Positions 9,071 through 58,670 of a DNA stretch of 64,000 bases are shown here, one piece after another. The notes beneath the pieces were generated by a model, which saw nothing but the letters and a program-made list of their open reading frames with translations, was not told the DNA's origin and did not search any database. The DNA is from Eledone cirrhosa (taxonomy: Eukaryota), in NCBI GenBank assembly GCA_964016885.1, contig OZ024740.1, positions 301,940,001-302,004,000 of the forward strand, in the 5' to 3' direction. Positions within the stretch are counted from its first letter, which is position 1. The number at the start of each line of letters is the position of its first letter. The translations under genes were made by a program, and so were the position numbers.

Positions 9071-9208
<138 letters not shown>

Positions 9209-9402
9209 TAGGAACGAGTAGAACCCCGACGGCTGAGCTCAAGCTGTTTCGACGGCTAATTCTGGACTCAGAATTAGCCGTCGAAACGGCTTGAGCTCAG
9301 TCGTCGGGGTCCTACTCGTTCCTATTACCCACTCTACTACCCTAAGTATTGAGTAATTTTGGTGCGTTATGGTCCATCTGATTCCTTACCACATTTCCTT
9401 CG

Positions 9403-9403
<1 letters not shown>
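9209..9403 (+). mobile_element. Fold-back PLE-like terminal fragment (family B) containing the 3' half of a hammerhead
   Basis: Palindrome 9209-9324 followed by a ~75-bp tail. GAAAC-GGC...GUC-GUC-GGGG resembles stem III plus a GUC site. Homologues lie at 26748-26880, 29191-29413 and 55176-55367. Confidence 0.7.
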
Positions 9404-9442
<39 letters not shown>

Positions 9443-10444
9443 GGAGGATGTTTATGCGTATATGAAAAGAAGGTGCAGAACTATGTTTCATTGTGGTTGA
9501 TTGGATGGTATACAGGGCTTCTGGTGAGGTTCCAATAAGATACGGAATTCTATTATGAATGTTTAGCACTTTTACAATTGACAGGAACATTTGTATTTCT
9601 GCCATTTCTATATATTAGATATGTCACATATGTGTGCATATTGATACATGTTGGTGTGGCTTCGGTTGCACACTCTACATGTATATAGATATAACTTCAT
9701 CATATGCCGTATATATACATACATACATATGTGAAATTATCATACATGATGATGAATGTGTTGAATTCGATATGAAAATACGTTAAATCCAACATCGGGT
9801 CCCCTCTGTCCTCACAGCGTGTATGAGCGTTGATGTCTGGTCTGGCCTTTCCGAGATCGACAGATGCGCGCACAGCGACTGCAAGGAAATGACTGTTTTT
9901 TTCATTGCTTCATCCTGACCCAGCTATTTTTATGTGCCTATGACTATGAAACGCAAGTCGTGGAGCACTTAGTTAATCATTCTATATCGTGTAAACCATG
10001 GTACGGGAACATTTCCAATTGTCCTCACTTCAATTTGAGATTATTTTTGCACGTTTAATACGTTTAAATCTTCTTGCATTGAGCGAGAAATGAGAACAGC
10101 GGTTCAATAATAAATACTTTTCTCTATGCCCCGTTTTAACTACAAACAAAATATATGTTTATATATTGTTATATTTGGGGATGGCCATACTGTTATAATA
10201 TTGGTAGAAATAATAATAAAACACACTCACTGTTTGGTTTGGATCGGTTTTCCCTTCTGTATATTTTAAATACATATATACACACACATATATATATATA
10301 TACATATATATATATATGTACTTGTCTATACCACACTAATTCGGACTGCCTGAAGAGGTCACAGCCAAAGATGGCTGTCACTGAAATATATATAGCAGTA
10401 ATAAACGAAGCTAAATTTTAAACATTTGACTTTTTATTTAACTT

Positions 10445-10889: not shown

Positions 10890-11550
10890 GGATTGATGGA
10901 AACTAAACCTCGATGAATGTTTTATTTTGTGGATGAAAGTCTTGATGAAATAAGGAATTTTCAAACCCTCATGACACACAAAATGCTATAAACTCTAAAG
11001 CCCAATTCACTATGGAATTTAGCAAAGCAATACTCTCTTCCTTAGACATAATATTAACAAAAAGAACCACAAATCTAGATATTGACATATTTTTCAAATC
11101 CAGCGACTCCCGTCAGAATCTCACTTTCCCATCTGCTCATTCAACTCAAACACGCACCCACATTCCACTTAACCTAGATAAGCTGATCTACACAATAGCT
11201 TCAAAAGCAACAAGAGACCACCGACTAGTGACGATGAAAAATATACACATCAAGCAAAATTACCCACTAAATCTAATGAAAGACACCACTCAAAAACTCA
11301 AAAAAATAATATTCAACTTCATCTCCTCCGAGAACCCCACCCCGCAAAAAGAAGTCATGCCATGTATCTTAACCTTCAAACCCCAAAACATCAATACCTC
11401 TACCCTTATACAACTAAAACTACGTATACTACAAAAAAGATTTTTTAAATGAATCTCTTACAGAAATATTCTATTATTAAAACTAAATAACAGCCGAAAT
11501 CATTAAAAAGTATTAAGATGGGCAGAGCTGCGAACCACAATTACAGAACC
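10890..11550 (+). mobile_element. Decayed Penelope-like element RT/thumb fragment (Neptune-like)
   Basis: 'LDECFILW' (~10908-10932; YxDD-like motif), then 'QFTMEF..LSSLDI..DIFFKSSDSRQNLTFPSAH..HIPLNL..QNYP', typical PLE RT C-terminal and thumb motifs. Confidence 0.8.
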
Positions 11551-26526: not shown

Positions 26527-26747
26527 ATAAAAGTCCGTGTTCCTACATGTAAAAAATACACATAGGGATACAAGTATTGTACAATCGTATGCCAGTGTGG
26601 TTCAATGGCAGGTTAATAAATTAACATGTCAGAACCGCGGTAAAGGCACATATTGTAAGTACAGTGAAATTTGGGAAATTTATTTTAAAAATTCTTCTCT
26701 ATTTGCTAAACCTTGATTTTATATATATATATATATATATACATACT

Positions 26748-26876
26748 GAAGGAAGGTTGGTAAGGACCAGGTGGATGATAACGCACTCGTTCTTTTGGGT
26801 AGTAGATTGGGTAATAGGAAATGGGAAATAGCCGTCGAAACGGCTTGAGCTTTGCCGTCGGGGTCCTGAACATGTT

Positions 26877-26880
<4 letters not shown>
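26748..26880. mobile_element. Family B PLE-like fragment, head-to-head inverted
   Basis: Minus-strand tail (CCTATTACCCAATCTACTACCC..) joined to plus-strand GAAATAGCCGTCGAAACGGCTTGAGCTTTGCCGTCGGGGTCC. TA flanks. Confidence 0.7.
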
Positions 26881-26929
<49 letters not shown>

Positions 26930-28961: not shown

Positions 28962-29145
28962 GCGGTGGATTGGCAGTATCGGTAGAGGGTCGGACGCCAT
29001 GCTTTGACGCATAGAGTTACTGCCCTTGCCATTCTGAGTTCAAATCCCGCCGAGGTTAACTTTGCCTTTCATCCTTACGGGGTCGATAAAATAAAGTACC
29101 AGTAATACACTGGCTAATCGCTGGCCTTGTGACAAAAGTAGAAAC

Positions 29146-29150
<5 letters not shown>
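28962..29150 (+). mobile_element. SINE family 1, best-preserved copy
   Basis: A box TGGCAGTATCGG, B box GAGTTCAAATCC, Deu/Nin-domain-like CCTTTCATCCTTACGGGGTCGATAAA, and AGAAACAATTA tail. Confidence 0.9.
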
Positions 29151-29190
<40 letters not shown>

Positions 29191-29194
<4 letters not shown>

Positions 29195-29413
29195 AGAAAG
29201 TATGACACCGACGGCAGAGCTCAAGCCGTTCCGACGGCTATTTCTGGACTAAAGTGTAATTAGAAAGATTCATTTTAGTCCAGAAATAGCCGTCGAAACG
29301 GCTTGAGCTCTGCCGTCGGGGTCATACTTTCTCCTATTGCCACTCTACTACCCTAAGTATTGAGTACTCTGGTGCGTTATGGTCCATCTGGTTCCTTACC
29401 ACAACTCCTTCGT
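29191..29413 (+). mobile_element. Family B fold-back PLE-like fragment
   Basis: Palindrome 29191-29336 plus tail. GAAA-CGGC uugagcucu GCCG-UC forms stem III and a GUC site. Confidence 0.75.
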
Positions 29414-29428
29414 TATATATATATATAT

Positions 29429-29930
29429 AAATTGGAATAAATGCTCTGAAATAGCGATATATATGTGAATATAGACATAGAATATTCGAAAATATTCTGT
29501 ATGTTTATAATAAACATTTTGAAGACCTAATCGCTATAGAATAGAATACGTCACGTATTACAATTAGATTCTCGATAAAAGCAAGGGAAGTAATCTACGC
29601 GTTTCATTCTCGTTAGAAATCATCAGGACTACATATCCAGTGCTTTTATCGAGAATGACACAGCTAGAGACTTATAGAATACTTAGCTGTGTACAGGAAC
29701 TGGTTTGAAAGAGCGGTTGCCGGTCCGGCAGAAATTAGAAATTGGAATAAATGCTCTGAAATAGCGATATATATGTGAATATAGACATAGAATATTCGAA
29801 AATATTCTGTATGTTTATAATAAACATTTTGAAGACCTAATCGCTATAGAATAGAATACGTCACGTATTACAATTAGATTCTCGATAAAAGCAAGGGAAG
29901 TAATCTACGCGTTTCATTCTCGTTAGAAAT
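29429..29930 (-). repeat. Inverted ~1.6 copies of the 310-bp hammerhead unit; one complete HHR at 29568-29656
   Basis: Reverse complement of the array unit, joined head-to-head with the plus array at 29930/29931. Confidence 0.95.
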
Positions 29931-32900
29931 CTGTGTCATTCTCGATAAAAGCACTGGATATGTAGTCCTGATGATTTCTAACGAGAATGAAACGCGTAGA
30001 TTACTTCCCTTGCTTTTATCGAGAATCTAATTGTAATACGTGACGTATTCTATTCTATAGCGATTAGGTCTTCAAAATGTTTATTATAAACATACAGAAT
30101 ATTTTCGAATATTCTATGTCTATATTCACATATATATCGCTATTTCAGAGCATTTATTCCAATTTCTAATTTCTGCCGGACCGGCAACCGCTCTTTCAAA
30201 CCAGTTCCTGTACACAGCTAAGTATTCTATAAGTCTCTAGCTGTGTCATTCTCGATAAAAGCACTGGATATGTAGTCCTGATGATTTCTAACGAGAATGA
30301 AACGCGTAGATTACTTCCCTTGCTTTTATCGAGAATCTAATTGTAATACGTGACGTATTCTATTCTATAGCGATTAGGTCTTCAAAATGTTTATTATAAA
30401 CATACAGAATATTTTCGAATATTCTATGTCTATATTCACATATATATCGCTATTTCAGAGCATTTATTCCAATTTCTAATTTCTGCCGGACCGGCAACCG
30501 CTCTTTCAAACCAGTTCCTGTACACAGCTAAGTATTCTATAAGTCTCTAGCTGTGTCATTCTCGATAAAAGCACTGGATATGTAGTCCTGATGATTTCTA
30601 ACGAGAATGAAACGCGTAGATTACTTCCCTTGCTTTTATCGAGAATCTAATTGTAATACGTGACGTATTCTATTCTATAGCGATTAGGTCTTCAAAATGT
30701 TTATTATAAACATACAGAATATTTTCGAATATTCTATGTCTATATTCACATATATATCGCTATTTCAGAGCATTTATTCCAATTTCTAATTTCTGCCGGA
30801 CCGGCAACCGCTCTTTCAAACCAGTTCCTGTACACAGCTAAGTATTCTATAAGTCTCTAGCTGTGTCATTCTCGATAAAAGCACTGGATATGTAGTCCTG
30901 ATGATTTCTAACGAGAATGAAACGCGTAGATTACTTCCCTTGCTTTTATCGAGAATCTAATTGTAATACGTGACGTATTCTATTCTATAGCGATTAGGTC
31001 TTCAAAATGTTTATTATAAACATACAGAATATTTTCGAATATTCTATGTCTATATTCACATATATATCGCTATTTCAGAGCATTTATTCCAATTTCTAAT
31101 TTCTGCCGGACCGGCAACCGCTCTTTCAAACCAGTTCCTGTACACAGCTAAGTATTCTATAAGTCTCTAGCTGTGTCATTCTCGATAAAAGCACTGGATA
31201 TGTAGTCCTGATGATTTCTAACGAGAATGAAACGCGTAGATTACTTCCCTTGCTTTTATCGAGAATCTAATTGTAATACGTGACGTATTCTATTCTATAG
31301 CGATTAGGTCTTCAAAATGTTTATTATAAACATACAGAATATTTTCGAATATTCTATGTCTATATTCACATATATATCGCTATTTCAGAGCATTTATTCC
31401 AATTTCTAATTTCTGCCGGACCGGCAACCGCTCTTTCAAACCAGTTCCTGTACACAGCTAAGTATTCTATAAGTCTCTAGCTGTGTCATTCTCGATAAAA
31501 GCACTGGATATGTAGTCCTGATGATTTCTAACGAGAATGAAACGCGTAGATTACTTCCCTTGCTTTTATCGAGAATCTAATTGTAATACGTGACGTATTC
31601 TATTCTATAGCGATTAGGTCTTCAAAATGTTTATTATAAACATACAGAATATTTTCGAATATTCTATGTCTATATTCACATATATATCGCTATTTCAGAG
31701 CATTTATTCCAATTTCTAATTTCTGCCGGACCGGCAACCGCTCTTTCAAACCAGTTCCTGTACACAGCTAAGTATTCTATAAGTCTCTAGCTGTGTCATT
31801 CTCGATAAAAGCACTGGATATGTAGTCCTGATGATTTCTAACGAGAATGAAACGCGTAGATTACTTCCCTTGCTTTTATCGAGAATCTAATTGTAATACG
31901 TGACGTATTCTATTCTATAGCGATTAGGTCTTCAAAATGTTTATTATAAACATACAGAATATTTTCGAATATTCTATGTCTATATTCACATATATATCGC
32001 TATTTCAGAGCATTTATTCCAATTTCTAATTTCTGCCGGACCGGCAACCGCTCTTTCAAACCAGTTCCTGTACACAGCTAAGTATTCTATAAGTCTCTAG
32101 CTGTGTCATTCTCGATAAAAGCACTGGATATGTAGTCCTGATGATTTCTAACGAGAATGAAACGCGTAGATTACTTCCCTTGCTTTTATCGAGAATCTAA
32201 TTGTAATACGTGACGTATTCTATTCTATAGCGATTAGGTCTTCAAAATGTTTATTATAAACATACAGAATATTTTCGAATATTCTATGTCTATATTCACA
32301 TATATATCGCTATTTCAGAGCATTTATTCCAATTTCTAATTTCTGCCGGACCGGCAACCGCTCTTTCAAACCAGTTCCTGTACACAGCTAAGTATTCTAT
32401 AAGTCTCTAGCTGTGTCATTCTCGATAAAAGCACTGGATATGTAGTCCTGATGATTTCTAACGAGAATGAAACGCGTAGATTACTTCCCTTGCTTTTATC
32501 GAGAATCTAATTGTAATACGTGACGTATTCTATTCTATAGCGATTAGGTCTTCAAAATGTTTATTATAAACATACAGAATATTTTCGAATATTCTATGTC
32601 TATATTCACATATATATCGCTATTTCAGAGCATTTATTCCAATTTCTAATTTCTGCCGGACCGGCAACCGCTCTTTCAAACCAGTTCCTGTACACAGCTA
32701 AGTATTCTATAAGTCTCTAGCTGTGTCATTCTCGATAAAAGCACTGGATATGTAGTCCTGATGATTTCTAACGAGAATGAAACGCGTAGATTACTTCCCT
32801 TGCTTTTATCGAGAATCTAATTGTAATACGTGACGTATTCTATTCTATAGCGATTAGGTCTTCAAAATGTTTACTATAAACATACAGAATATTTTCGAAT

Positions 32901-35900
32901 ATTCTATGTCTATATTCACATATATATCGCTATTTCAGAGCATTTATTCCAATTTCTAATTTCTGCCGGACCGGCAACCGCTCTTTCAAACCAGTTCCTG
33001 TACACAGCTAAGTATTCTATAAGTCTCTAGCTGTGTCATTCTCGATAAAAGCACTGGATATGTAGTCCTGATGATTTCTAACGAGAATGAAACGCGTAGA
33101 TTACTTCCCTTGCTTTTATCGAGAATCTAATTGTAATACGTGACGTATTCTATTCTATAGCGATTAGGTCTTCAAAATGTTTATTATAAACATACAGAAT
33201 ATTTTCGAATATTCTATGTCTATATTCACATATATATCGCTATTTCAGAGCATTTATTCCAATTTCTAATTTCTGCCGGACCGGCAACCGCTCTTTCAAA
33301 CCAGTTCCTGTACACAGCTAAGTATTCTATAAGTCTCTAGCTGTGTCATTCTCGATAAAAGCACTGGATATGTAGTCCTGATGATTTCTAACGAGAATGA
33401 AACGCGTAGATTACTTCCCTTGCTTTTATCGAGAATCTAATTGTAATACGTGACGTATTCTATTCTATAGCGATTAGGTCTTCAAAATGTTTATTATAAA
33501 CATACAGAATATTTTCGAATATTCTATGTCTATATTCACATATATATCGCTATTTCAGAGCATTTATTCCAATTTCTAATTTCTGCCGGACCGGCAACCG
33601 CTCTTTCAAACCAGTTCCTGTACACAGCTAAGTATTCTATAAGTCTCTAGCTGTGTCATTCTCGATAAAAGCACTGGATATGTAGTCCTGATGATTTCTA
33701 ACGAGAATGAAACGCGTAGATTACTTCCCTTGCTTTTATCGAGAATCTAATTGTAATACGTGACGTATTCTATTCTATAGCGATTAGGTCTTCAAAATGT
33801 TTATTATAAACATACAGAATATTTTCGAATATTCTATGTCTATATTCACATATATATCGCTATTTCAGAGCATTTATTCCAATTTCTAATTTCTGCCGGA
33901 CCGGCAACCGCTCTTTCAAACCAGTTCCTGTACACAGCTAAGTATTCTATAAGTCTCTAGCTGTGTCATTCTCGATAAAAGCACTGGATATGTAGTCCTG
34001 ATGATTTCTAACGAGAATGAAACGCGTAGATTACTTCCCTTGCTTTTATCGAGAATCTAATTGTAATACGTGACGTATTCTATTCTATAGCGATTAGGTC
34101 TTCAAAATGTTTATTATAAACATACAGAATATTTTCGAATATTCTATGTCTATATTCACATATATATCGCTATTTCAGAGCATTTATTCCAATTTCTAAT
34201 TTCTGCCGGACCGGCAACCGCTCTTTCAAACCAGTTCCTGTACACAGCTAAGTATTCTATAAGTCTCTAGCTGTGTCATTCTCGATAAAAGCACTGGATA
34301 TGTAGTCCTGATGATTTCTAACGAGAATGAAACGCGTAGATTACTTCCCTTGCTTTTATCGAGAATCTAATTGTAATACGTGACGTATTCTATTCTATAG
34401 CGATTAGGTCTTCAAAATGTTTATTATAAACATACAGAATATTTTCGAATATTCTATGTCTATATTCACATATATATCGCTATTTCAGAGCATTTATTCC
34501 AATTTCTAATTTCTGCCGGACCGGCAACCGCTCTTTCAAACCAGTTCCTGTACACAGCTAAGTATTCTATAAGTCTCTAGCTGTGTCATTCTCGATAAAA
34601 GCACTGGATATGTAGTCCTGATGATTTCTAACGAGAATGAAACGCGTAGATTACTTCCCTTGCTTTTATCGAGAATCTAATTGTAATACGTGACGTATTC
34701 TATTCTATAGCGATTAGGTCTTCAAAATGTTTATTATAAACATACAGAATATTTTCGAATATTCTATGTCTATATTCACATATATATCGCTATTTCAGAG
34801 CATTTATTCCAATTTCTAATTTCTGCCGGACCGGCAACCGCTCTTTCAAACCAGTTCCTGTACACAGCTAAGTATTCTATAAGTCTCTAGCTGTGTCATT
34901 CTCGATAAAAGCACTGGATATGTAGTCCTGATGATTTCTAACGAGAATGAAACGCGTAGATTACTTCCCTTGCTTTTATCGAGAATCTAATTGTAATACG
35001 TGACGTATTCTATTCTATAGCGATTAGGTCTTCAAAATGTTTATTATAAACATACAGAATATTTTCGAATATTCTATGTCTATATTCACATATATATCGC
35101 TATTTCAGAGCATTTATTCCAATTTCTAATTTCTGCCGGACCGGCAACCGCTCTTTCAAACCAGTTCCTGTACACAGCTAAGTATTCTATAAGTCTCTAG
35201 CTGTGTCATTCTCGATAAAAGCACTGGATATGTAGTCCTGATGATTTCTAACGAGAATGAAACGCGTAGATTACTTCCCTTGCTTTTATCGAGAATCTAA
35301 TTGTAATACGTGACGTATTCTATTCTATAGCGATTAGGTCTTCAAAATGTTTACTATAAACATACAGAATATTTTCGAATATTCTATGTCTATATTCACA
35401 TATATATCGCTATTTCAGAGCATTTATTCCAATTTCTAATTTCTGCCGGACCGGCAACCGCTCTTTCAAACCAGTTCCTGTACACAGCTAAGTATTCTAT
35501 AAGTCTCTAGCTGTGTCATTCTCGATAAAAGCACTGGATATGTAGTCCTGATGATTTCTAACGAGAATGAAACGCGTAGATTACTTCCCTTGCTTTTATC
35601 GAGAATCTAATTGTAATACGTGACGTATTCTATTCTATAGCGATTAGGTCTTCAAAATGTTTATTATAAACATACAGAATATTTTCGAATATTCTATGTC
35701 TATATTCACATATATATCGCTATTTCAGAGCATTTATTCCAATTTCTAATTTCTGCCGGACCGGCAACCGCTCTTTCAAACCAGTTCCTGTACACAGCTA
35801 AGTATTCTATAAGTCTCTAGCTGTGTCATTCTCGATAAAAGCACTGGATATGTAGTCCTGATGATTTCTAACGAGAATGAAACGCGTAGATTACTTCCCT

Positions 35901-36638
35901 TGCTTTTATCGAGAATCTAATTGTAATACGTGACGTATTCTATTCTATAGCGATTAGGTCTTCAAAATGTTTATTATAAACATACAGAATATTTTCGAAT
36001 ATTCTATGTCTATATTCACATATATATCGCTATTTCAGAGCATTTATTCCAATTTCTAATTTCTGCCGGACCGGCAACCGCTCTTTCAAACCAGTTCCTG
36101 TACACAGCTAAGTATTCTATAAGTCTCTAGCTGTGTCATTCTCGATAAAAGCACTGGATATGTAGTCCTGATGATTTCTAACGAGAATGAAACGCGTAGA
36201 TTACTTCCCTTGCTTTTATCGAGAATCTAATTGTAATACGTGACGTATTCTATTCTATAGCGATTAGGTCTTCAAAATGTTTATTATAAACATACAGAAT
36301 ATTTTCGAATATTCTATGTCTATATTCACATATATATCGCTATTTCAGAGCATTTATTCCAATTTCTAATTTCTGCCGGACCGGCAACCGCTCTTTCAAA
36401 CCAGTTCCTGTACACAGCTAAGTATTCTATAAGTCTCTAGCTGTGTCATTCTCGATAAAAGCACTGGATATGTAGTCCTGATGATTTCTAACGAGAATGA
36501 AACGCGTAGATTACTTCCCTTGCTTTTATCGAGAATCTAATTGTAATACGTGACGTATTCTATTCTATAGCGATTAGGTCTTCAAAATGTTTATTATAAA
36601 CATACAGAATATTTTCGAATATTCTATGTCTATATTCA
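29931..36638 (+). repeat. 310-bp tandem array, 21 full + 1 partial units, each with a type I hammerhead (retrozyme-like)
   Basis: The unit start CTGTGTCATT recurs every 310 bp from 29931 to 36441. The only variants I saw are T>C at 32874 and 35354. Confidence 0.97.
29938..30026 (+). ncRNA. Type I hammerhead ribozyme of the first array unit, repeated 22 times at +310 intervals
   Basis: Outer stem AUUCUCGAUAAAAGCA/UGCUUUUAUCGAGAAU (16 bp); inner stem I GUAGUC/GAUUAC; CUGAUGA at 29968-29974; stem II UUCU-AACG-AGAA; GAAA at 29989-29992; stem III palindrome ACGCGU; predicted cleavage after GUA at 29998. Confidence 0.9.
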
Positions 36639-36728
36639 TATATATATATATATATATAAGCAAAAGGTAAAAACTTGAACTGTTAAGATCTTCCTGGTTA
36701 TGTAAATATTTATAAAACAAACTTTGTA

Positions 36729-37974: not shown

Positions 37975-38616
37975 AGTTTTAAATATAAAAGAGCTTCTAC
38001 GGGACTGGAACTGTTTCATTCGTGAGAAATCATCAGGAAGCTGGCTGTCCAAGTAAATGGTAGTATTTATATCTTTCCTTATCTGGTGGTAGAAGAGGGT
38101 GGGGATTGGGATGGGTGGAGGTCATTGGTTGATGGATTTAAAGAAAAGGGAGTTCATTAAAAGCTAATTCTTAAAAGCTGTAATATTAACAAAAGCAGAA
38201 AGAATACTGTAAAAATTGGAATACCTATCCATGTTTATCACTTAGACTAACAATGCCTGTAAGACAGGTGTCTACAGGATGGGTGGGGTTCAATGGTTTA
38301 AAGAAAAGGGAAATCCTTTAGTCTAAGTGATAAACAAGGATTGGTATTCCAATTTTGAATTTGTTTACAGTATTCTTTCTGCCTTTGTTAATATTATAGC
38401 TTTTAATGAACTCTCTTTTCTTTAGATCCTTCTACCAATTACCTACGGCCATCCCAATCTCCACCCTCTCCTACCACCTGATAAAGAAAGATATAACTAC
38501 TACCATTTATTTGGACAGCCAGCTTCCTGATGATTTCTCACGAATGAAACAGTTCTAGTCTGCTATGTATTGAGTACCTTACTAACTGTGGTTACCTCCG
38601 ATTCAACCTGAAATAA

Positions 38617-38618
<2 letters not shown>
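37975..38618. mobile_element. Family A long fold-back PLE terminal fragment with two HHR copies
   Basis: Arms 37975-38250 (minus) and 38318-38560 (plus). Minus HHR: AGCUUC-CUGAUGA-uuucucacgaau-GAAAC..GUA-GAAGCU. The tail matches 608-664. Confidence 0.8.
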
Positions 38619-38710
<92 letters not shown>

Positions 38711-48592: not shown

Positions 48593-50693
48593 TTGAAGAG
48601 TTAAACAATGAGTATATCAAAAAATGAGTTTTACAGTAGATTCGAAGCCCTGTAACATGGCCCAAAACATCGCCAAATTAAACACTAAAATCCTAAAACA
48701 AAACCAGCATAATGATACTAATAATAGAGTTAACATAAATGATACTAAACCTAAATGTAATTGTTTGAAATAAAACTGATTGCCCTTTGCAAAATAATTG
48801 TTTAGATAGTAATTTGGTTCATAAATGCACCGTAAAAACTGATCACAACACATACAACTACATAGGATCCACTTCTTCCACTTTTAAAGCCAGATTTGCG
48901 AATCATTCTCGAACTCAAAGAGGAAATCATCCACTTCTTTATCACAGCTCATATGGTCATTAAAAGAGAAGAATTTAAAATACTCCTTTCTTTGGACAAA
49001 ACTTCGTATATCAAACTCTAGTATATCAAATAACTGCGCACTCTGTAAAATGGAGACCCTGTTGATTATTAATAACTACGAGACCCTAATTAACAAAAAA
49101 AGTAAATTATTCTCTAGTTGCCTCCACAAAGTTACGTCCACATTCTTAGCCTCCCGCAAAACGAGAAAAAAAAGAGAGAGAAACACTAAACCATTAAAAA
49201 CTTGGTTGTCAGACGTATATAATCAACAGGGAAAACCTTTATTGGCCTTTAATATTGCACTATCTTATAACTATCTATAGAAGAAATAACGCTCGAATGA
49301 ATGAAAGACACTTGTTCAATAACATGCCGGAACATTGATACACATAACATTATCCTGTTAACTTTGATCCATACCATTATTTCTTTATTTCTCTATCCTT
49401 AACTTCCTATTTAAGTTTTAAATCCGTGTTTTGCATCCAACCCTTACATCTTTACTGAACTTATTTATAACTGTAAATTTTTCATGCGTTTCTGATCTCT
49501 TATTTATAATATGTATGTAATTATATTTGTTATGTTTTTAAATATACCTACCGCATTCTTATATCCATGATTCAAATATATAGCAAATATCCAAATTATA
49601 AATTATTATAAACATTATTTCGAACTATGAATTATCCATGCATTTATTATTGTTTTTCTTATATATATATATATATGTATTTAAATTTAACACGTAGAAC
49701 TTTATTATATAAAATTATAACCGTTATCATTTACCTAAAGTATACTGTATCACTAATACATAATATAAGATATACCCATATATAACTCCCAAGTATATTT
49801 ATATACATAATTTTCAGTTAACTTCTAAATTTCTTGATTGTTTTTACCTAGGAATAATTAAAACATGCACACACGGTTGTATATGGGTATATATTTAGTT
49901 TTATCATGCCTCAACCAATTATTTTATTTTTATTTTATTTTCATTATCATTTACCTAAAATATACTGGCTCATTAATTAATTAATATATATCTATATACA
50001 TAACCGTTATTTAGTTTTTTATAACAATAAGTACTTCAAAAACTTTATATACCTAATACGTTGACAATAACTAACTTCATTAAAGATTACATTTAGGAAA
50101 ATATTCAACAGTGTAAACTTTCCTTAATAATGGCCAGCTAAATCCTTTTAATCGTATCATCAAAAAATTCAGAAGCTTAGAAATGTTATGAGATTTACAA
50201 AACTAATATACAAATAACCACCAATTTAAAAAAAACTCCTAAAACATTGATTCTTCAACCTAAGATAACATAAATTAAATATTTTCAAACTTAACCGTTT
50301 AACTTTCGGGAAAAAAATCTTCTTCTGCATACATTACCCCCCCCCCCTCCCTTCTCTCACTGACTGTTATAATTCATGAAATGGTTTCCTAGATAAATTG
50401 TAGTATCATACATATTAAAATCTCGATAGCTGGTACATTAAGCAACGTTTTTCTTACTCACACATTCTCTATTGAATTTATTACGTTTTGGCATTTTGTC
50501 ATTATTAGGGTATAAATGTTAAATTTTCTCTTAGGTTAATCACTACGTTGTTTAAATCTTAACCATTTAACATCTCAGGGTATGTCATATATCATTATAT
50601 TTTGTCTGATGAGGACGTACTGTTGTACATCCGAAATATGTATATTAAAATGTAATTGATCAAAAGAACATCTATTTTATTAATATTTATATT

Positions 50694-50884: not shown

Positions 50885-53800
50885 ATCTAAGGCGGGTAAA
50901 ATTCCCGACATCCATGGACGAGTTCTCTCCAGCGGTCTCTGTCCCTCATTATCGCTGCCATGTCCTGCATTTCCAACAGACCAGTGTCTGTCCTTAGGGC
51001 ATCAACATACGTTAACCTTGGTCTTTTTCTTCTAGTGTGTCCATGTAGGGGTTCCCAAAGGAGTACTGAGTGCAATGTCAACTCTGCATGTCGGTGAGCA
51101 TCTCCAGCTAACCTCAGTCTCCTCTGTGTCACTTTTGAGCTGACTTTTGGGATGCTCCCATACAGCTCTGAGTTTTTCATCCTCAGTGTATAATGATTAA
51201 TGTTAAGAGCCATCCTCAGCATTCTCGTGTAGCACCCATCCACCATCTGAGTGAGTTTCTTGGTCAGTGTCCAAGTCTCAGACCCATACAGCAGCACAGA
51301 CTCCACTACAGCAATGAAGAGGCGGATTTTCAGGTCTCTACGAAGGTCCGACTTCCACACCGATCTCAAACTGTGGCATGCCGCCCAGGCCTTGCTCTTC
51401 CGCTCAACCACATCATCTTCCGTATTCCCAATCTTTGCTCCCAAATACAGGAAGTCCTCAACCAATTCCAGCGGCTTCCCGCCTACATTAGTGATCCCCT
51501 CTGGCCTCTCAACATTCTCTACCAGATATTTTGTTTTAGTCTCATTCATTCTCAGCCCCACACTCATCGACACAGTCTCAACCTCCCGCATCAAATCCTG
51601 TGCCTCCTTCATTGTATTTGTCCCAAAACTATGTCGTCGGCAAACTCAGCATCCTATACCTTTTTCGCCCTAACTCTCCTGCTCTGAGCCGGTGCTATAG
51701 TAAAGCCAGAGTCCTGGTGTTTCTCCAGTGCAAGGCGCATACAATAGTCCACTACGATGATAAAAAGGTAGGGAGCCAATGTATCTCCCTGGAGCACTCC
51801 AGCCAGTATCTCAAAGAACTCTGTCATCCCATCAGGTGTAATGACTTGGGCTTTGGTGTTGGTGTAGAGCAGTGATATCAGGTCCACTATCTTCTTGGGG
51901 ATTCCATAAGCCTGTAAGATCTTCATCAGGCAGTAACGGTCCACAGAATCAAAGGCCTTCCTAAAGTCAATGAAAACCATGACCGCAGGAAGGCACTTTG
52001 CTCTAGCTCCCTCTAATATCCTCCTCAGCATCAGGATGTGACTGGTGGTTGATCTACCCTCTCTGAAGCCGTTCTGGTTGTCCCTGAGCTTCTTCTCCAT
52101 CTTAGGCTGGATCCTGTTAAGAATCATCCTGTTGGGGGTCTTTGCCACAAGTGACGTCAGTGAGATCCCCCGGTAGTTGTTGGTGTCAGAGAGATCTCCC
52201 TTCTTTGGCAATGGGACAATGTTACTGATCCTCCACTAATTCGGGGCAACTCCTTTCTCCAGTGCCCCGTTACAGAACCCCAGGATGATATCATCAAAAT
52301 CACACCTCTTAATCACCTCTGATGCCACTCCATCTTCTCCATGAGCCTTGCCCTCGTTGATCCTCTTCTTGGCTCTCTGAAGCTCCTCTCTGGTGAAGGG
52401 CTCTGTCTCAACATCCAGTTCCTCAAACAGCCGCCTGATCTCCCCAGTGCTCTGGGCTGTGGAGGGTGGCTCTCCTAGTAGGGTCCTAAAATGCTCTAGC
52501 CATTTCCTCTTCCTATCCTCGGGCCCCGTTCCCTGGATCTGACTCGAACACCTTCTCTTTCTGCCTGTGATCTCGTTGATGATCATCCAGCTCTCCTTAC
52601 ATCCAGATCTGTCCACCGCTCTCTCCACACTTCTGATCTTCTATATCAGTGCCTCCTCTCTGACCTCAGTGTAAGTGGTACAGAGCTCTTCCCTCATCAC
52701 CTCCACAGTCTCCACCCTCTCCTCCGTAGGATCAGCATAGAATTGGTCCTTGGCAGCTTTCAGGTGTTCTCTGGCTGCACACACTTTTGGGTTTGCAGAG
52801 CTGACGTGCTTCCCTTTATTCTTTTTCCTCGGCACCTGGGTTTCACTTGCTTCCGCCACTGCATTGGCGAAGTGCCCGTACCTCCTCGTCACACTCTCCT
52901 CAGTCCATCCGATCTCTCTCTCCTCTGACTCTCCACACAGAGCACTAAACCTGTTTCTCACTTCCACTGTGAACCTCTCCTGTAGCTTATCATCTTCCTT
53001 GAAAGCTCCCCAGTCATAGATTGTTCTCCGGGGCTGAGCCTTGTTCTTTCTTAAGCTCACGCGGACCTCACTCATAACAAGCCGGTGGTCACTACCCAGT
53101 GTACTGAAATAGCTGTATGGTTCCGTGTTCAGAACACTATTCCGCCACTTTTTCCTCACCAGAATGAAATAAATCTGGGACTTGGACAGGTGCATATCTG
53201 AGATGTTGGTCCACATCTTCCCCAGATTCTTCCTAAACCTTAGGTTGGTCGCCATCAAGTTCGCCTCCAGCAGGGTGTCTCTCAGTAGTCTTCCATTTCG
53301 GTTGGTGTTGTTATGGAAGTACCAGCAAGTATCTTCACTGCCCTCCTTACTCAGATGTGCATTGAAGTCCCCCAAAACAAGCAGGATATTGTGTGCCTGA
53401 GTGGTGTTGACAGCTCTACACACCTCCTCATGGAACACTTCCGCATTCACATCGCTGTCCCCCTCGGTTGGACTATAGGCTGAGATGACTGTCAGTCTTG
53501 GGTTTCCATTGAAGGTCACCCTCAACACTCGCGGGGAGATAGGCATTATTTCCCTCACCAACAGATTGGTTTTTGCACTGAACACAAAACCCACTCCTCC
53601 TACTGCAGCATTTGTTGTGTTCTTCACTGCTGATGTAGTGATGAGCTGGCTCTTCTTCCCAATCATCACACTCCTCACGTGCTCATCGTGTAGAATCCTG
53701 TGTTCTTGGATCACAAGTATCTGTATACCACTCTCCTCGAACAGATGTCCTAACTCCTCTCTCTTCTCCAGCGTCCGAATAGTCCTCACATTCAAAGTGC

Positions 53801-54190
53801 CCATTTTGATGGCTCTTCTGCAGGACAAAACTGCATTCTTTATATTTGTTTCAGAGACAGCTGATCCATCATCCACTGGCCCTCTCTGTGGCTCTAAGCC
53901 AGCAGAGTCATAACGACCAGGCTGCTCCTTGACAGTGTCATTAGGGGCTCTAACCCTAGTGCTGTTAGATCGACTCTCCATATTTCTTTTCAATGGCTGA
54001 CAATACCTTACCGGCGCCACTCGAATAAGGTAGTTATTTAACCCATAAACGGAGCCCTAACAGGTACTACCACCCCGGGCCAGGGCAGACCTGGGAGTCA
54101 TGACAACTAAGGCGTAACTCCACATTCCCCACATCTCCTGAACTCCCGAACTGGAGCCTTGCCACTGGATGTAGTTTAATGTCATACCCA
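50882..54190 (-). mobile_element. Near full-length RTE-clade LINE (APE + RT), inactivated
   Basis: ORF pieces 52641-54020 (TLNVRT, IQEH, AYSPT, GDFN, SDH), 52236-52628, 51654-52211 (NYRGISL, QNGFR, FIDFRKAFDSV, GVLQGDTLAP), FADD ~51633-51644, and 50887-51612. Three in-frame stops plus one frameshift. (TA)n flanks. Confidence 0.95.
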
Positions 54191-55175: not shown

Positions 55176-55365
55176 AATGAAAAGATTCAACCCCGACAGC
55201 TGAGCTCTGGCAGATTCGACAGCTAGTTACGAACAGTTCGTATCTAGCTGTAAAAACGGCCGGAGCTCAGTCGTCGGGAGTCCTGAATCTTTTCATATTA
55301 CCCACTCTACTACCCAAAGTATCGAGTACTCTGGTGGGCCCACCTGGTATTTTACCACATTTTTC

Positions 55366-55367
<2 letters not shown>
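55176..55367 (+). mobile_element. Family B fold-back fragment, diverged
   Basis: Imperfect palindrome 55176-55296 plus the TTACCCACTCTACTACCC tail. Confidence 0.65.
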
Positions 55368-55427
<60 letters not shown>

Positions 55428-55503
55428 CAACAAAATTAAAGATGTCTGAGAAAATACGAAACAAACATGCATACACACACACATACACATATATATATAT
55501 ATA

Positions 55504-58500
55504 TCTTAGTCTTAGTCTTAGTATTAGTTCCTCCAGTGCCTTGTGGAACATTGGGCGACGAGCTCCTCCACTTGATCCTGTCACTGGCGGCCCTTCTTTC
55601 ACCTCTCCAGGTAATTCCCATCTCCTGCAGGTCCTCCCTGAATGTGCTCCGCCATGTTTTTCGTGGTCTTCCCCGTTCTCTCCTGCCACCTTCTGGTACC
55701 CAATCCATGGCAATATGAGCAGGTCGATCTGCCGGCAAACGAAGGATGTGGCCGCGAATCGCCGTCTCCTTTTCTGGACAATGTCCCTTAACCTCTCCAA
55801 TCCTGACCTCCTCATCACTTCCTCGTTGCTAACTTGGTCTCTCCATGACATTTTCAATAAGGTCCGAATGCAACGACGGTGGAATACATCAAGCTTGTTA
55901 CACACACTTTCCGTACTCTTCCATGTCTCACAGGCATATATCGATGTTGGTACTACAATGAACATGTAAACACGGAATTTGACGGCGTTGCCGATGGAAC
56001 ACCTGGACCATACCGGACGGAGTCGCTGGAAGACCGCCACTGCTTTTCCCAGCCTTGTGCGCACATTTACCTCAACATCCCCATCGTCAGAGATGTTGCT
56101 GCCAAAGTATTGGAAGTGGTTTACACATTCAATGTTACGCTGACCAACCATGATGGGAGGATTTGGAGGGTCACCTGTCGACATGGTCTAGGTTTTTTCA
56201 CAACTGATGCGCAGGCCAACTTTCTCTGCATTGTTATTTAGAACGTTTGTCATCTCTTGCAGGTCTTCTCGGGAATGGCCTATCACTGCGATGTCATCGG
56301 CAAAGTCCACGTCGCTTAATGTCCTTCCATCCCAACTGATGCCAAAACGAGGGTCACTCATTGTCTTCTTCATGATGAAATCGATGACAATGAGGAAAAG
56401 GAAAGGCGAAAGGATGCAGCCTTGTCGAACACCCGTCAAGGTGTCAAACATTTCCGTGTTTCCGTCCTTTGTCCTAACGCAGCACCTGGAATGTCGGTAC
56501 AGCGACCTGAAGATGTTAATATATTTCTCTGGGACACCATAGAGTCTTACAATCTTCCACAATGACACCCGATGAACACTGTCGAAAGCTTTCCTGAAGT
56601 CAATGTAGTTGACAACAAGGGACTTGTGGAACTCCCGACATTTTTCAATGATATTTCGGAGAGTGAAGATCTGCTCTGAACAAGACCTTCCACTACGGAA
56701 GCCAGCCTGTTTATCTCGAAGATGACGATCTACTTCTGCTCTCAGCCGGTTCAGGATGACTGTGCAGAATACCTTCCCTGGCACTGATAGCAACGTGATC
56801 CCTCTCCAGTTGTTACAGTCGCTGAGACAGCTCTTCTTCGGTAGTGGTACAATCACTCCATGTCCCCAGTCCTCCGGCACCGCCTCTTCTTGCCAAATCA
56901 CATTGTATAAATGAGTGAGATGCTCTTCTATTACATCCTTGCCGTGCTTCAGAAGCTCTGCAGGAATCTCATCCAGCCCTGCCGCTTTGTTATTCTTTTG
57001 GCAGCGGATGGCCTTGGCCACCTCAGCTCTTGTGATGTCGTCTAGTCGTACATCCAGCCGGTAGCTCGATTCCTCCCAGTCAAGCTCGAAGACTGTGATG
57101 GGGGATGGCTGATTGAGGACCTCACGAAAGTGTTCTTTCCACCTTTGGGCCTGCTCTTCACTGGCTGCAAGCATCCGACCTTCTTTGCTCTTGATTGGCA
57201 AACTACTTCCACTTCGTCCTCCAGTTAACTCTCTGACGATCCGGTACAGCGTCTTGTAATCATTTCGATCTGCTGCCACCTGTGCCTCTGCAGCCCCATC
57301 TTCTAACTACTGGCGCTTGTCTTTTCGACAGCTCTTCTTTACTTCCTTGTCAAGCCGTCTGTACGCTTTGTCCACTTCCTTCCATTGCTGTCGAGTTTTG
57401 GTTTGATCTCTTTTGTTCTTAACATCCTTCCTCTCGTCAATAAGATTCCATGAAGTACTGCTGATCCATTGTTCCCGGTTGGTCCCTTTTCTTCTACCAA
57501 TAACTACATCAGCACGCACCCTGACCGCCTGAGCAAACATCTTCCAATGGTCTTCACGGTTCTGTGCGTGCTGTAGTTCTTGGAACTTATTCCTGATCTC
57601 CAGGTAGAATCTCTCTGACGTGCCTTGGTCTTGCAGGCTTGCGACAGCAGATGGCCTCACGGTCTTATTTGCTTTGTTCTTCTTCAACCTCAAGCGGATT
57701 TTTCCAACCACAAGATGATGGTCAGATCCGACGTCTGCCCCTCGGTAGGGGCGAACATCCAAGAGAGAGGAATGCCACCTCGTGTCAATGCAGATATAAT
57801 CAATCTCATTCCTGGTGTTGCCATCAGGGGAAGTCCATGTCATCTTGTGAATCCGTCTATGGGTGAAGAATGTATTCCTGTGGAGAGGTTGCTGATACTG
57901 CTCAGGGACAGCAACCATTCCCCGTTGTTATTGGTGGAATCATCTGAACTGTGGGGGCCAATGGCTGAATGCATGTCTCTCCTGTCTCCATCTAGCTTGG
58001 CATTAAAGTCACCAATCACCAGCCTAATGTCTGACCTGGTTGTTTCCTATAGGACATCCTGTAGTTGGATAAAGAAGGAACGTTATCTTCATCTCAGGCA
58101 ACTTCAGTCGGGGCGTAGACTTGCAATACGGTCACCTTGGCTAACCTTGTGCTCAATCTGGCAGTAATAATTCGTTCAATCACTGGCCTCCATCCCACAA
58201 GAGCCCGTGATACATCTCCGGTGAGGATGATACTAACTCCGTGGACATGGTGGTCATCATCACCGGCGTAGAGAATAGTCATGTCTCCACTGTCGAGTCG
58301 TCCCCGTCCTGTCCACCTCGTCTCGCTGAAGCCCATGATGTCAAGGCGATATTCCCTCATCTCTTTCAGCACCTGCTCCATCCGCCCGTCTTGAAAGAGC
58401 GTGCGGACATTCCAGGTGCCTACTCTCGTATTTGACTTGGCGTTGAAGATAGGACTTATCCGCGGTCGGGCCTCCTTTCGGCTTTGACCCGGCCCCATCA

Positions 58501-58670
58501 TAGGCGCATCCAGGGATGACCTGTCTTCTCTTTTCCGCCGCTGGGTATCAAAATGGTTTTTTCTCGTCGTTTCTGTAGCGGTAAAAATGTTTTACGGGGG
58601 CAGGACTGCTAACACCACGCCCCAACCCTCCTCCTTTCTCAACCGGGCTTGGGACCGGCTAGGGCGAAGT
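55504..58670 (-). mobile_element. Full-length RTE-clade LINE (APE + RT), inactivated, with (ACTAAG)n tail
   Basis: ORF pieces 58094-58501 (TWNVRT, SETRW, VYAPT), 57307-57918 (IDYI, GSDHH), 56188-57279 (NWRGITLL, QAGFR, IDFRKAFDSV, GVRQGCILSP, FADD) and 55267-56184. Tail TCTTAG x3-4 on plus at 55504-55528. (TA)n flanks. Confidence 0.95.
58620..58670 (-). ncRNA. Twister ribozyme (P1-type) 3' cleavage-product portion at the RTE 5' end
   Basis: Minus strand: A-CUUC-GCC-CUA-GCCG-GUCCC-AAGC-CCGG-uugagaaa-GGAG-GAGGG-UUGGGG. It matches the twister core GCCGGUCCCAAGCCCGG...GAGGG, with P2 CUUC/GGAG, P4 CCG/CGG and pseudoknots CCC/GGG and GC/GC. Confidence 0.85.

Follow-up and report, generated by a model that had tools for sequence, protein, structure and literature searches.

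Among described systems, the closest to the element analysed here are the metazoan non-LTR retrozymes of coral, mussel and axolotl (Cervera and de la Pena 2020, PMC7229834). In the accessible text of that report they are non-coding tandem repeats of 150–450 bp with a GC content below 50% and one canonical type I hammerhead ribozyme per unit, they share their genomes with Penelope-like elements (PLEs), and they are described as plain tandem arrays for which expression and circles were shown. Their link to PLEs was proposed from common hammerheads and co-occurrence; neither that text nor PMC7761336 settles what machinery mobilises animal retrozymes, or whether it copies them from circles. For vertebrate retrozymes of similar unit size, a recent preprint (Li, Clavereau, Pollet, bioRxiv 10.64898/2026.07.22.740005) also concludes that PLEs mobilise them, on the evidence of co-occurrence and pLTR homology and with no mollusc sampled, and favours local tandem growth by unequal crossover. 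Newt satellite 2 and similar hammerhead satellites, as presented in PMC7229834, have repeats of ~330 bp in which helix III is weak and palindromic, and cleave as dimers. Endonuclease-bearing (EN+) PLEs themselves (Penelope/Poseidon, Neptune, Naiad, Hydra; PMC8557442, PMC11167929) insert as partial tandems with an inverted 5′-truncated arm, a 30–40-nt tail at one end, internal reverse transcriptase (RT) starts and a (TA)n or AT-rich target. The inverted 5′ copy, the one-ended 30–40-bp tail and the microsatellite bias are listed as PLE features in PMC8557442, which leaves open how the inverted arm and tail are formed.

The element examined here lies in a 64,000-nucleotide stretch of Eledone cirrhosa contig OZ024740.1, called the window below. 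It shares with the metazoan retrozymes the non-coding tandem repeat (310 bp; array GC 34–35%), the single type I hammerhead per unit and the co-resident PLEs, and it differs in having an inverted second arm, a tail, a fixed pair of ends and a (TA)n target, all absent from the descriptions in the accessible text of PMC7229834. The connection to PLEs comes here from insertion anatomy in genomic DNA. The unit resembles newt satellite 2, although that is an old satellite and the copies described here are recent, dispersed, two-armed insertions. All of the EN+ PLE insertion features recur in the 310-bp element, which is distinguished by the lack of an ORF and by arms that are both long multimers. 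No library entry searched is related to the unit. The best reading is a new family of a known class, the metazoan non-LTR retrozymes, with unusually direct evidence for its mechanism. We put at roughly 70% the probability that it is a young, non-autonomous retrozyme mobilised by an endonuclease-bearing PLE, mostly by way of monomeric RNA circles.

A two-armed insertion of hammerhead units

The long arm (29931–36638, + strand) consists of 21.64 tandem 310-bp units (TRF: period 310, 21.7 copies, 99% matches, 0% indels) that run from unit position 1 at the 5′ end to unit position 198 at the 3′ end. It contains 2 mismatches in 6,708 bp, at 32874 and 35354: units 1–21 differ from one another only in units 10 and 18, where position 154 carries a T>C change, and the partial unit 22 stops at position 198 (36638). 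Because the unit itself has ATATATAT there, this short end, S, is ambiguous between positions 198 and 207. The initial annotation had recognised 21 full units and one partial, near-identical unit without an ORF, and both TRF and the unit-by-unit comparison bear this out; the longest ATG frame in the unit is 30 aa and the longest stop-to-stop frame 59 aa, so that it carries no coding ORF and none of the RT plus GIY-YIG reading frame of an autonomous PLE. It had also placed the element's start at 29931, which is correct for the array; the element as a whole, however, is two-armed and begins at 29429, and the (TA)n tracts at both outer ends had been missed. The inverted arm (29429–29931, − strand) holds 1.62 units with 0 mismatches, has its 5′ end at unit position 43, and ends 3′ at unit position 235, the long end L, which bears a tail of ~30–35 nt. 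Both arms are 5′-truncated and meet head to head at 29931 with one base in common. Outside them lie the left and right portions of the target microsatellite, (TA)8 at 29414–29429, which itself flanks an older fold-back insertion (29190–29413), and (TA)10 at 36639–36658; since both flanks are (TA)n, a target-site duplication cannot be delimited. Neither LTRs nor a plant-type layout is present, the ends of the element being (TA)n junctions and its insertions dispersed and mobile. Further upstream, at 28964–29151, is a repeat that we take to resemble an octopus SINE, a likeness that would fit the cephalopod source thought probable in the initial annotation.

Each unit contains a type I hammerhead, at 29956–30008 (+) in unit 1, with the architecture given in PMC4209133 (helix I of 6 bp, helix II of 4 bp, helix III of 1–2 bp with a palindromic loop). 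Helix I is GUAGUC/GAUUAC, the core CUGAUGA (29968–29974) is followed by U.U, helix II UUCU/AGAA and GAA, helix III (29992–29997) is the palindrome ACGCGU, and the cleavage triplet is GUA. In having U.U below helix II and a helix III of 2 bp it matches the description of axolotl HHR_Amex2 in PMC7229834. The hammerhead elements claimed earlier for each unit (helices I–III, core and triplet) are confirmed, and the GGA/UCC extension and perfect 16-bp helix claimed with them are both real; the latter (29938–30026, +) pairs 29938–29953 with 30011–30026 (unit 8–23 with 81–96), extends helix I and closes the putative circle-forming stem. The predicted cut positions, 29998 + 310n, were reproduced, giving 22 predicted sites on the + strand from 29998 through 36508, and a 23rd hammerhead in the inverted arm (29586–29638, −) has a predicted cut after 29596.

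The region 29931–30040 folds with z = −5.0 (0 of 200 shuffles equally stable), the circular monomer with z = −4.1 against 100 shuffles, and the hammerhead descriptor matched none of 3000 base-shuffled units. In the ViennaRNA minimum-energy fold the hammerhead core is mispaired; a fold that contains helices I and II costs 1.5 kcal/mol more. A search with Rfam Hammerhead_1, which had been suggested as a check, failed to give a hit: the whole window yielded 0 hits at the gathering score, an E-value scan of 1.2 kb returned no hammerhead at E ≤ 10 and only hairpin-type chance hits, and with a 66-nt query the sole match was Hammerhead_HH9, sub-threshold at 13.5 bits against a cut-off of 52 (E 0.36). 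A match at the curated score is a test of the library and stands outside the published definition of a retrozyme.

Comparison among copies also bears on the fold. The core is unchanged in 448 of the 449 copies that span it, the first 11 loci having been chosen for an intact core. Substitutions in unit 8–96 that break core or pairing account for 0 of 9 locus-wide variants versus 12 of 14 sporadic ones (p = 7e-5), and for 0 of 5 versus 12 of 14 when only paired and core sites are considered (p = 0.002); the test counts distinct variants, several of which are transitions tolerated by G.U pairs. The sparing of the fold by locus-wide variants points to selection on the ribozyme fold.

Insertion anatomy across the genome

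The array is real, but the locus is not special: it is one among about 1,500–2,000 estimated insertions, which make up about 0.2% of the genome. A 28-nt unit marker has 19,171 exact genome matches (0 for the reversed control), and the exact 43-nt ribozyme of the window locus has 4,033. With divergence of 0.03% within the window locus, the element is a very young non-coding mobile family, and in this respect the genome-wide evidence upholds the young retrozyme family first proposed.

In most insertions the arms are divergent, lie in (TA)n and are joined at random 5′ phases. Nine of the first ten other loci picked by the ribozyme alone are two-armed, all with S plus L and all in a TA-rich microsatellite; only these ten were unselected for a TA target, the end-search patterns requiring TA. 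Within the unit, S falls at 194–207 and L at 228–240, and 75 of 84 arms are longer than one unit. Where a minus-strand and a plus-strand end lie next to each other within the initial ~97 Mb of contig 1, the pair is S-L in 20 cases, L-S in 17 and alike in none (n = 37), for which the chance probability is 0.5^37 = 7e-12. The inverted 5′-truncated arm, one-ended tail and microsatellite target are thus PLE-type features, and together with the intact PLEs in the genome they support the PLE-based mobilisation that had been suggested from the window.

The near-identity of the units makes such arrays difficult to assemble, and the copy number at the locus is approximate. That the array is an artefact of assembly is nonetheless the least probable of the explanations weighed here, as the loci have distinct flanks, locus-specific haplotypes and unit lengths of 308, 310 and 311 bp, and separately assembled contigs of another sequencing run (X5) have matching loose (TA)n ends, at unit positions 207 and 238.

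The two ends fall in a 3′ module (unit 127–264; 30057–30194, +) composed of a helix (127–134/206–213), the S start region and a second helix (217–221/260–264) that encloses the U-rich L start region. This module may be where the RT binds and initiates. In vitro work on a PLE (PMC11167929) identified the tail as the stretch that separates two internal RT start sites, found both strands nicked and extended, and predicted a dimer. The bulk data in that study revealed no start-site difference between the strands, whereas here the two strands of each insertion differ, one having S and the other L.

The copied template

The two arms of a locus agree. Arm-discordant haplotypes number 0 among 42 two-arm loci with 19 haplotypes (chance match 0.18), most of these loci having been picked for having both ends and all lying on contig 1; we count this for one template per locus. 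Sporadic variants are private to one arm in 35 cases and truly shared in 1, and 62 of 76 sporadic variant entries are single-copy. Private variants may also fill whole loci, for example 278C>A in 17 of 17 copies at L060. At L058 a 274-bp piece of a different non-LTR element lies in the junction, in sense orientation, a capture that we count for copying at the RNA level.

An alternative, which we regard as unlikely but the strongest of the competing accounts, is that a PLE copies long linear uncleaved multimers, the hammerhead being a passenger or having another role, and that exchange at the DNA level homogenises the arrays and makes them longer. PLE insertion in vitro is independent of hammerhead cleavage, with ribozyme mutants still inserting and unprocessed RNA the main substrate (PMC11167929), which counts against the circular route, as does the in vitro cleavage of only 1 of 9 predicted retrozyme dimers in Xenopus (bioRxiv 10.64898/2026.07.22.740005). 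Likewise, an uncleaved multimer would leave no scar at 68/69, and at least one template was multimeric: at L137 a variant occupies the same index in both arms, and therefore the template was at least a dimer, while L057 and L138 each have one variant in both arms at different indices. Block duplications exist too. The position-154 variant recurs 8 units apart in the window and a linked variant pair 7 units apart in L057, which points to later DNA-level block duplication or to assembly, so that not all 21 units need stem from one reverse-transcription run. A short-multimer circle fails to account for the 8-unit spacing, since unit 2 lacks the variant. Yet source arrays with sporadic variants should pass them to both arms of their daughters, contrary to the 1 shared against 35 private; private variants fixed over loci of 8–19 copies demand a bottleneck of one unit; the predominance of single-copy entries is unlike the clustering expected under gradual expansion; and the ribozyme fold is spared by locus-wide variants. 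The rolling-circle origin put forward in the initial annotation has genome-wide backing, except that a single run need not account for the whole array.

Homogeneous arrays would likewise result if a monomer circle of DNA were copied in rolling-circle fashion. This and the block duplications could instead suggest a satellite that spreads at the DNA level, by extrachromosomal circles or by repair synthesis, with an inactive hammerhead. Such a satellite is very improbable, for it leaves unexplained the two fixed, mutually exclusive 3′ ends and the PLE-identical layout, as well as the (TA)n targeting, the selection on an RNA fold and the sense capture of a retroelement.

Two further schemes were considered. 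In L1-style twin priming the sense arm starts where the inverted arm stops, which the random-phase 5′ ends contradict. End-to-end jumping on linear monomers is disfavoured, there being neither pile-up nor scar at 68/69: 5′ ends near the cut site number 1 of 88 versus 2.3 expected, and no sporadic indels occur at unit positions 64–74 in 449 copies. Together with the predominance of arms longer than one unit, these counts speak for a continuous template.

Under the preferred reading, a PLE-mobilised retrozyme copied mostly from monomeric circles, arrays would be transcribed from some promoter; the hammerheads would cut after GUA, probably as dimers formed through the ACGCGU palindrome, to give 310-nt monomers; and a host ligase would close these into circles. 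The cutting and circle steps are suggested by the structure, by selection on the fold and by PMC7229834. A PLE protein, the probable enzyme, would then nick both strands of a (TA)n tract, the target seen in the insertions, and the two 3′ ends would prime reverse transcription on the same RNA from internal sites S and L ~30 nt apart. The observed pattern, in which one strand has S, the other has L and no pair shares a site, would follow if a dimer worked on one molecule. Each RT would circle the template for 0.3 to >20 turns and halt at a random phase, and the two cDNAs would be joined by microhomology, as the patterns of arm length and junction indicate. DNA-level exchange may afterwards add blocks of units to some arrays, and multimers would account for a minority of the templates. 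Whether each insertion is such a paired rolling-circle, target-primed event, with a PLE dimer on one small circular RNA and mutually exclusive starts on two nicked (TA)n strands, we consider evenly balanced. If so, the genome would show directly that the retrozymes of animals retrotranspose by way of circles, and the inverted arm and one-ended tail of PLEs would have a general explanation.

Candidate Penelope-like partners and other sequencing runs

The genome has two young intact PLEs, a Neptune-type element with a 775-aa frame (RVT_1 plus GIY-YIG) and an 830-aa family with alternating ends at 4347/4484. Both have the inverted-arm-plus-tail layout of the 310-bp element, with tails of ~65 and 137 nt, and the hammerhead of the Neptune-type family is a U3-A8 core variant. 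When these 775-aa and 830-aa units were compared in full, neither had a significant match to the 3′ module, and no parental pLTR for the 310-bp unit was found in these two families. GIY-YIG candidates in the genome number 10,595, of which 30 loci were read; 60 loci around PLE endonucleases yielded only a non-coding relative. An older sister family has about 77–81% identity to the 3′ module in local matches, with the same two ends.

It could be argued that there is no free-standing retrozyme, the unit being a pseudo-LTR that belongs to an autonomous PLE whose truncated insertions make up the arrays. The insertion grammar is that of PLEs, a family with 16,443 hits and a tail that continues into a PLE-like N-terminus carries a related hammerhead (with U.U at the helix II base and a GUA cut), and the preprint cited above (bioRxiv 10.64898/2026.07.22.740005) derives retrozymes from pLTRs. 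We find this quite improbable: none of the 50 rows mapped, of ~1,900 insertions, has arms continuing into an ORF; one apparent exception, L123, is nested in the (TA)n of a PLE 3′ UTR (a target tract of (AT)9–25 in empty copies of the host PLE) and another, L052, ends at a 200-N gap; and the sister, third and fourth related families that share the 3′ module have no attached ORF at the loci covered (13 loci in one set, 4 of the 42 hits in another).

Because the retrozyme family is young and abundant, its insertions serve as replicates. Furthermore, with a 310-nt substrate of mapped starts, a defined target and intact candidate enzymes in one genome, the questions of retrozyme mobilisation and of PLE arm formation become testable in the in vitro PLE assay. 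Two-armed loci are also long inverted repeats, from which read-through transcription would give double-stranded RNA, and circle-copying, target-primed RT could have value as a tool.

The words of the unit also occur outside this assembly: 20 of the 24 runs listed contain 65–100% of them, across 18 organism codes and 17 studies, with no RNA run listed. Horizontal transfer is unsupported among the four runs examined. In two of them, X2 and X16, a single contig without flanks occurs, at depths of 6.7 and 5.1; two sibling runs of a further run (X18) have none of the unit's words; and in X23, a set of raw reads that shares its organism code with X1, the run richest in those words, 0 of 12.8 million reads matched, a result that tests transfer only if that organism is in the run. 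The scattered runs are more simply explained if a high-copy repeat was carried over between libraries. X5, in turn, looks like the host or a close relative, with 662 contigs, a summed depth above 1e5 and loose ends of both the S and L type.

An array of 310-bp units and its overlooked inverted arm

Tandem-repeat analysis of the window resolves an array at 29931..36638 into 21.7 copies at period 310 with 0 indels. Units 1–21 are identical apart from units 10 and 18, both of which have T>C at unit position 154. The final unit, 22, is incomplete, its last base being position 198 at window 36638. Every unit carries helix I (GUAGUC/GAUUAC), the core CUGAUGA, a U.U followed by helix II (UUCU/AGAA), GAA, helix III (ACGCGU) and a GUA triplet, and the 22 predicted cuts in the array run from 29998 to 36508. 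This motif fits the canonical metazoan hammerhead as PMC4209133 outlines it: helix I of 6 bp, helix II of 4 bp, helix III of 1–2 bp with a palindromic loop, and activity as dimers. The hammerhead region has a folding z of -5.0, and the descriptor matched 0/3000 shuffled units. The initial annotation had described this near-identical array, with a type I hammerhead in each unit, the same first and last cut sites and no ORF, and all of this holds; the unit is non-coding. It had also proposed a check of the unit against an Rfam hammerhead model, which gave no confirmation: neither the window scan nor an E-value scan of the array sequence returned a hammerhead match, and a 66-nt query returned HH9 alone (13.5 bits, E 0.36). 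What it had overlooked is an inverted arm, 1.62 units long and free of mismatches (29429-29931), lying head-to-head with the long arm; the whole element spans 29429-36638, holds 23 hammerheads rather than 22, and has (TA)n at both outer ends. A fold-back insertion with a one-sided tail (29190-29413) adjoins the element, and its (TA)n flank is the element's target; its kin lie near 9208-9442, 26720-26922 and 55189-55407.

The two-armed layout is typical of the family. Among the first 10 other loci picked by ribozyme alone, 9/10 were two-armed and 1/10 (locus L034) one-armed. Exact matches to a 28-nt marker from the unit number 19,171 across the 3.0-Gb host genome (reversed control, 0), which amounts to ~0.2% of the genome and ~1,900 insertions if reckoned at ~10 units each. 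The end patterns matched the forward strand 787 and 643 times, which puts insertions bounded by clean (TA)n at ~1,300-1,600; this count rests on the forward strand, as overlapping matches inflate reverse counts. The 50 rows mapped, which are confined to contig 1, have their 3′ ends in a short cluster (S, unit 194-207, 48 ends) or a long one (L, 228-240, 46 ends), one further value being the edge of a truncated region; 5′ ends are scattered across the unit, with 0-7 bp of overlap at most arm junctions. Because many mapped loci had been chosen for having both ends, the raw end listing is the fair test of pairing: over the first ~97 Mb, the listed ends form 37 adjacent minus/plus pairs no more than 16 kb apart, of which 20 are S-L, 17 L-S and 0 alike. 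In independent contigs of sequencing run X5, loose (TA)n ends lie at unit 207 and unit 238. The insertion at locus L123 lies within the (TA)n tract of a Penelope-like element (PLE) 3′ UTR, a tract that is empty in that PLE's other copies, and therefore fixes the target. At L129, the entire insertion is apparently doubled along with its long microsatellite flank, either by duplication or as an assembly artefact. The unit also turns up under 18 organism codes (runs X1-X24), at low depth in two of the runs examined; there, this apparent spread looks like library carry-over, of which the unit is probably a marker.

Evidence for a single template per insertion

Every copy in both arms of a locus carries that locus's own unit variant, private changes included (L047, L050, L057, L059, L060 and L123). 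Across 42 two-arm loci, leaving out the rearranged L043 and L129, we found 19 haplotypes and 0/42 loci with discordant arms, the chance of a match being 0.18. Sporadic variants in two-arm loci behave differently: 35 are arm-private, and 4 shared entries represent two variants, of which that at L057 is an alignment artefact and that at L137 is real (52 entries had no counterpart for comparison). For one variant to fill a whole two-armed locus, passage through a one-unit stage is the only route. Arms exceed one unit in 75/84 cases (mean 5.0, median 3.4 units), there are 0 sporadic indels at unit positions 64-74 in 449 copies, and 5′ ends near the cut site (1/88 versus 2.3 expected) show no pile-up. 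The simplest template is a covalently closed monomer, and we infer that the unit is transcribed, cleaved and ligated before copying. The unit contains two T4 runs, which argue against Pol III read-through. Copying of uncleaved linear multimers is the main rival to this reading, because a PLE did not need ribozyme activity in vitro (PMC11167929) and 8/9 Xenopus dimers failed to cleave (bioRxiv 10.64898/2026.07.22.740005).

If the template is a closed circle, it need not always be monomeric: L137 shows that there the template was at least dimeric and that both arms began in the same unit, and circular dimers form in vitro (PMC7229834). Later duplication is evident from variants that recur at a spacing of 8 units in the window array and of 7 in L057, so the 21.6 units of the window locus probably include a duplicated block. 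The earlier suggestion of rolling-circle copying from a 310-nt circle is thus kept as regards the template, though probably not for the full length of the array. The arm junction of L058 contains a captured stretch of 274 bp (1799-2072) in sense orientation; its source is the 5′ region of a non-LTR retroelement that is clustered on contig 25.

Penelope-like layout and a selected ribozyme fold

The layout of these insertions is that of PLEs, for which PMC8557442 lists partial tandems, an inverted 5′-truncated copy, a 30-40-bp tail at one end and a microsatellite bias, calling their origin unsolved. According to PMC11167929, each strand of AT-rich DNA is nicked and then extended by a PLE protein, for which a dimer is predicted; the two internal RNA sites at which reverse transcription begins are separated by the length of the tail. 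We infer a comparable dimer geometry, with a PLE as the enzyme. The host genome contains PLEs that are young and intact and share this layout. One family, Neptune-type by its motifs, encodes RVT_1 and GIY-YIG in a frame of 775 aa and has a tail of ~65 nt. The other has an 830-aa frame, for which 150/150 scored matches over a 193-aa stretch are identical; in 3/5 two-arm loci its ends alternate between a pair of sites separated by 137 nt, one of the other two loci being incompletely covered and one having an odd end. This second family (L226-L237) is extremely young, with a ~7-kb unit, tandem copies and a 137-nt tail; a pattern search found no canonical hammerhead in it. Because neither family has significant sequence in common with the 310-bp unit, the partner PLE is still at the candidate level.

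The ribozyme fold is under selection. Within unit 8-96, substitutions breaking the core or pairing make up 0/9 distinct locus-wide changes versus 12/14 sporadic ones (p = 7e-5; p = 0.002 for paired and core sites alone), with indels set aside (1 locus-wide, 4 sporadic). The nine locus-wide substitutions are at N7, in loop 2, U.U to A-U, or Watson-Crick/G.U swaps. Three older non-coding families (L143-L155; L197 and L034; L238-L241) share the 3′ module (unit 127-264), and in related families helices II and III differ in sequence yet remain paired or palindromic. Since related families keep this module, and a 320-bp sister family also has identical S and L ends, it is likely the recognition region; metazoan retrozymes are described in PMC7761336 as having no conserved motif that points to a helper. 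The 320-bp sister has a U3-A8 hammerhead core, as in Neptune-type PLEs.

The 310-bp family appears to be new within a known class (PMC7229834; bioRxiv 10.64898/2026.07.22.740005), and the weight of the finding lies in its mechanistic footprint more than in the array itself. Among the papers searched, largely open-access main texts, none describes a retrozyme from a cephalopod or retrozyme insertions with two arms and a tail; the supplements of PMC7229834 and of the preprint could hold such a family. A term search of the available text of PMC13282606, an Octopus repeat annotation, found no mention of ribozymes.

Other repeats of the window and genome

Two-armed (TA)n insertions at 472-680 and 37975-38620 belong to a very abundant PLE-type end with 16,443 pattern matches; its hammerhead resembles that of the 310-bp unit (U.U, GUA cut), and in L068, L081 and L089 its tail leads on to a PLE-like N-terminus. 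Further hammerhead-like motifs of other families lie at 10350, 26196/26261, 27409, 36735, 40499, 59096 and 63998, the 26196/26261 pair being a fold-back that matches the 3′ end of a GIY-YIG element in L225. Fragments at 10949-11449 and 48888-49280, without a Pfam match, appear by similarity or sequence reading to be decayed PLEs (RT-like, endonuclease-like). The minus strand also carries two LINE-type elements (50887-54056 and 55267-58591), both broken, with RVT_1 and endonuclease pieces. A dispersed SINE-like repeat of ~160-190 bp occurs at 28964-29151, where it presumably resembles an octopus SINE, and in about ten other places. Elsewhere in the genome, L126 (7926-9584) holds a second two-armed hammerhead repeat, with a 465-bp unit unrelated to the 310-bp family.
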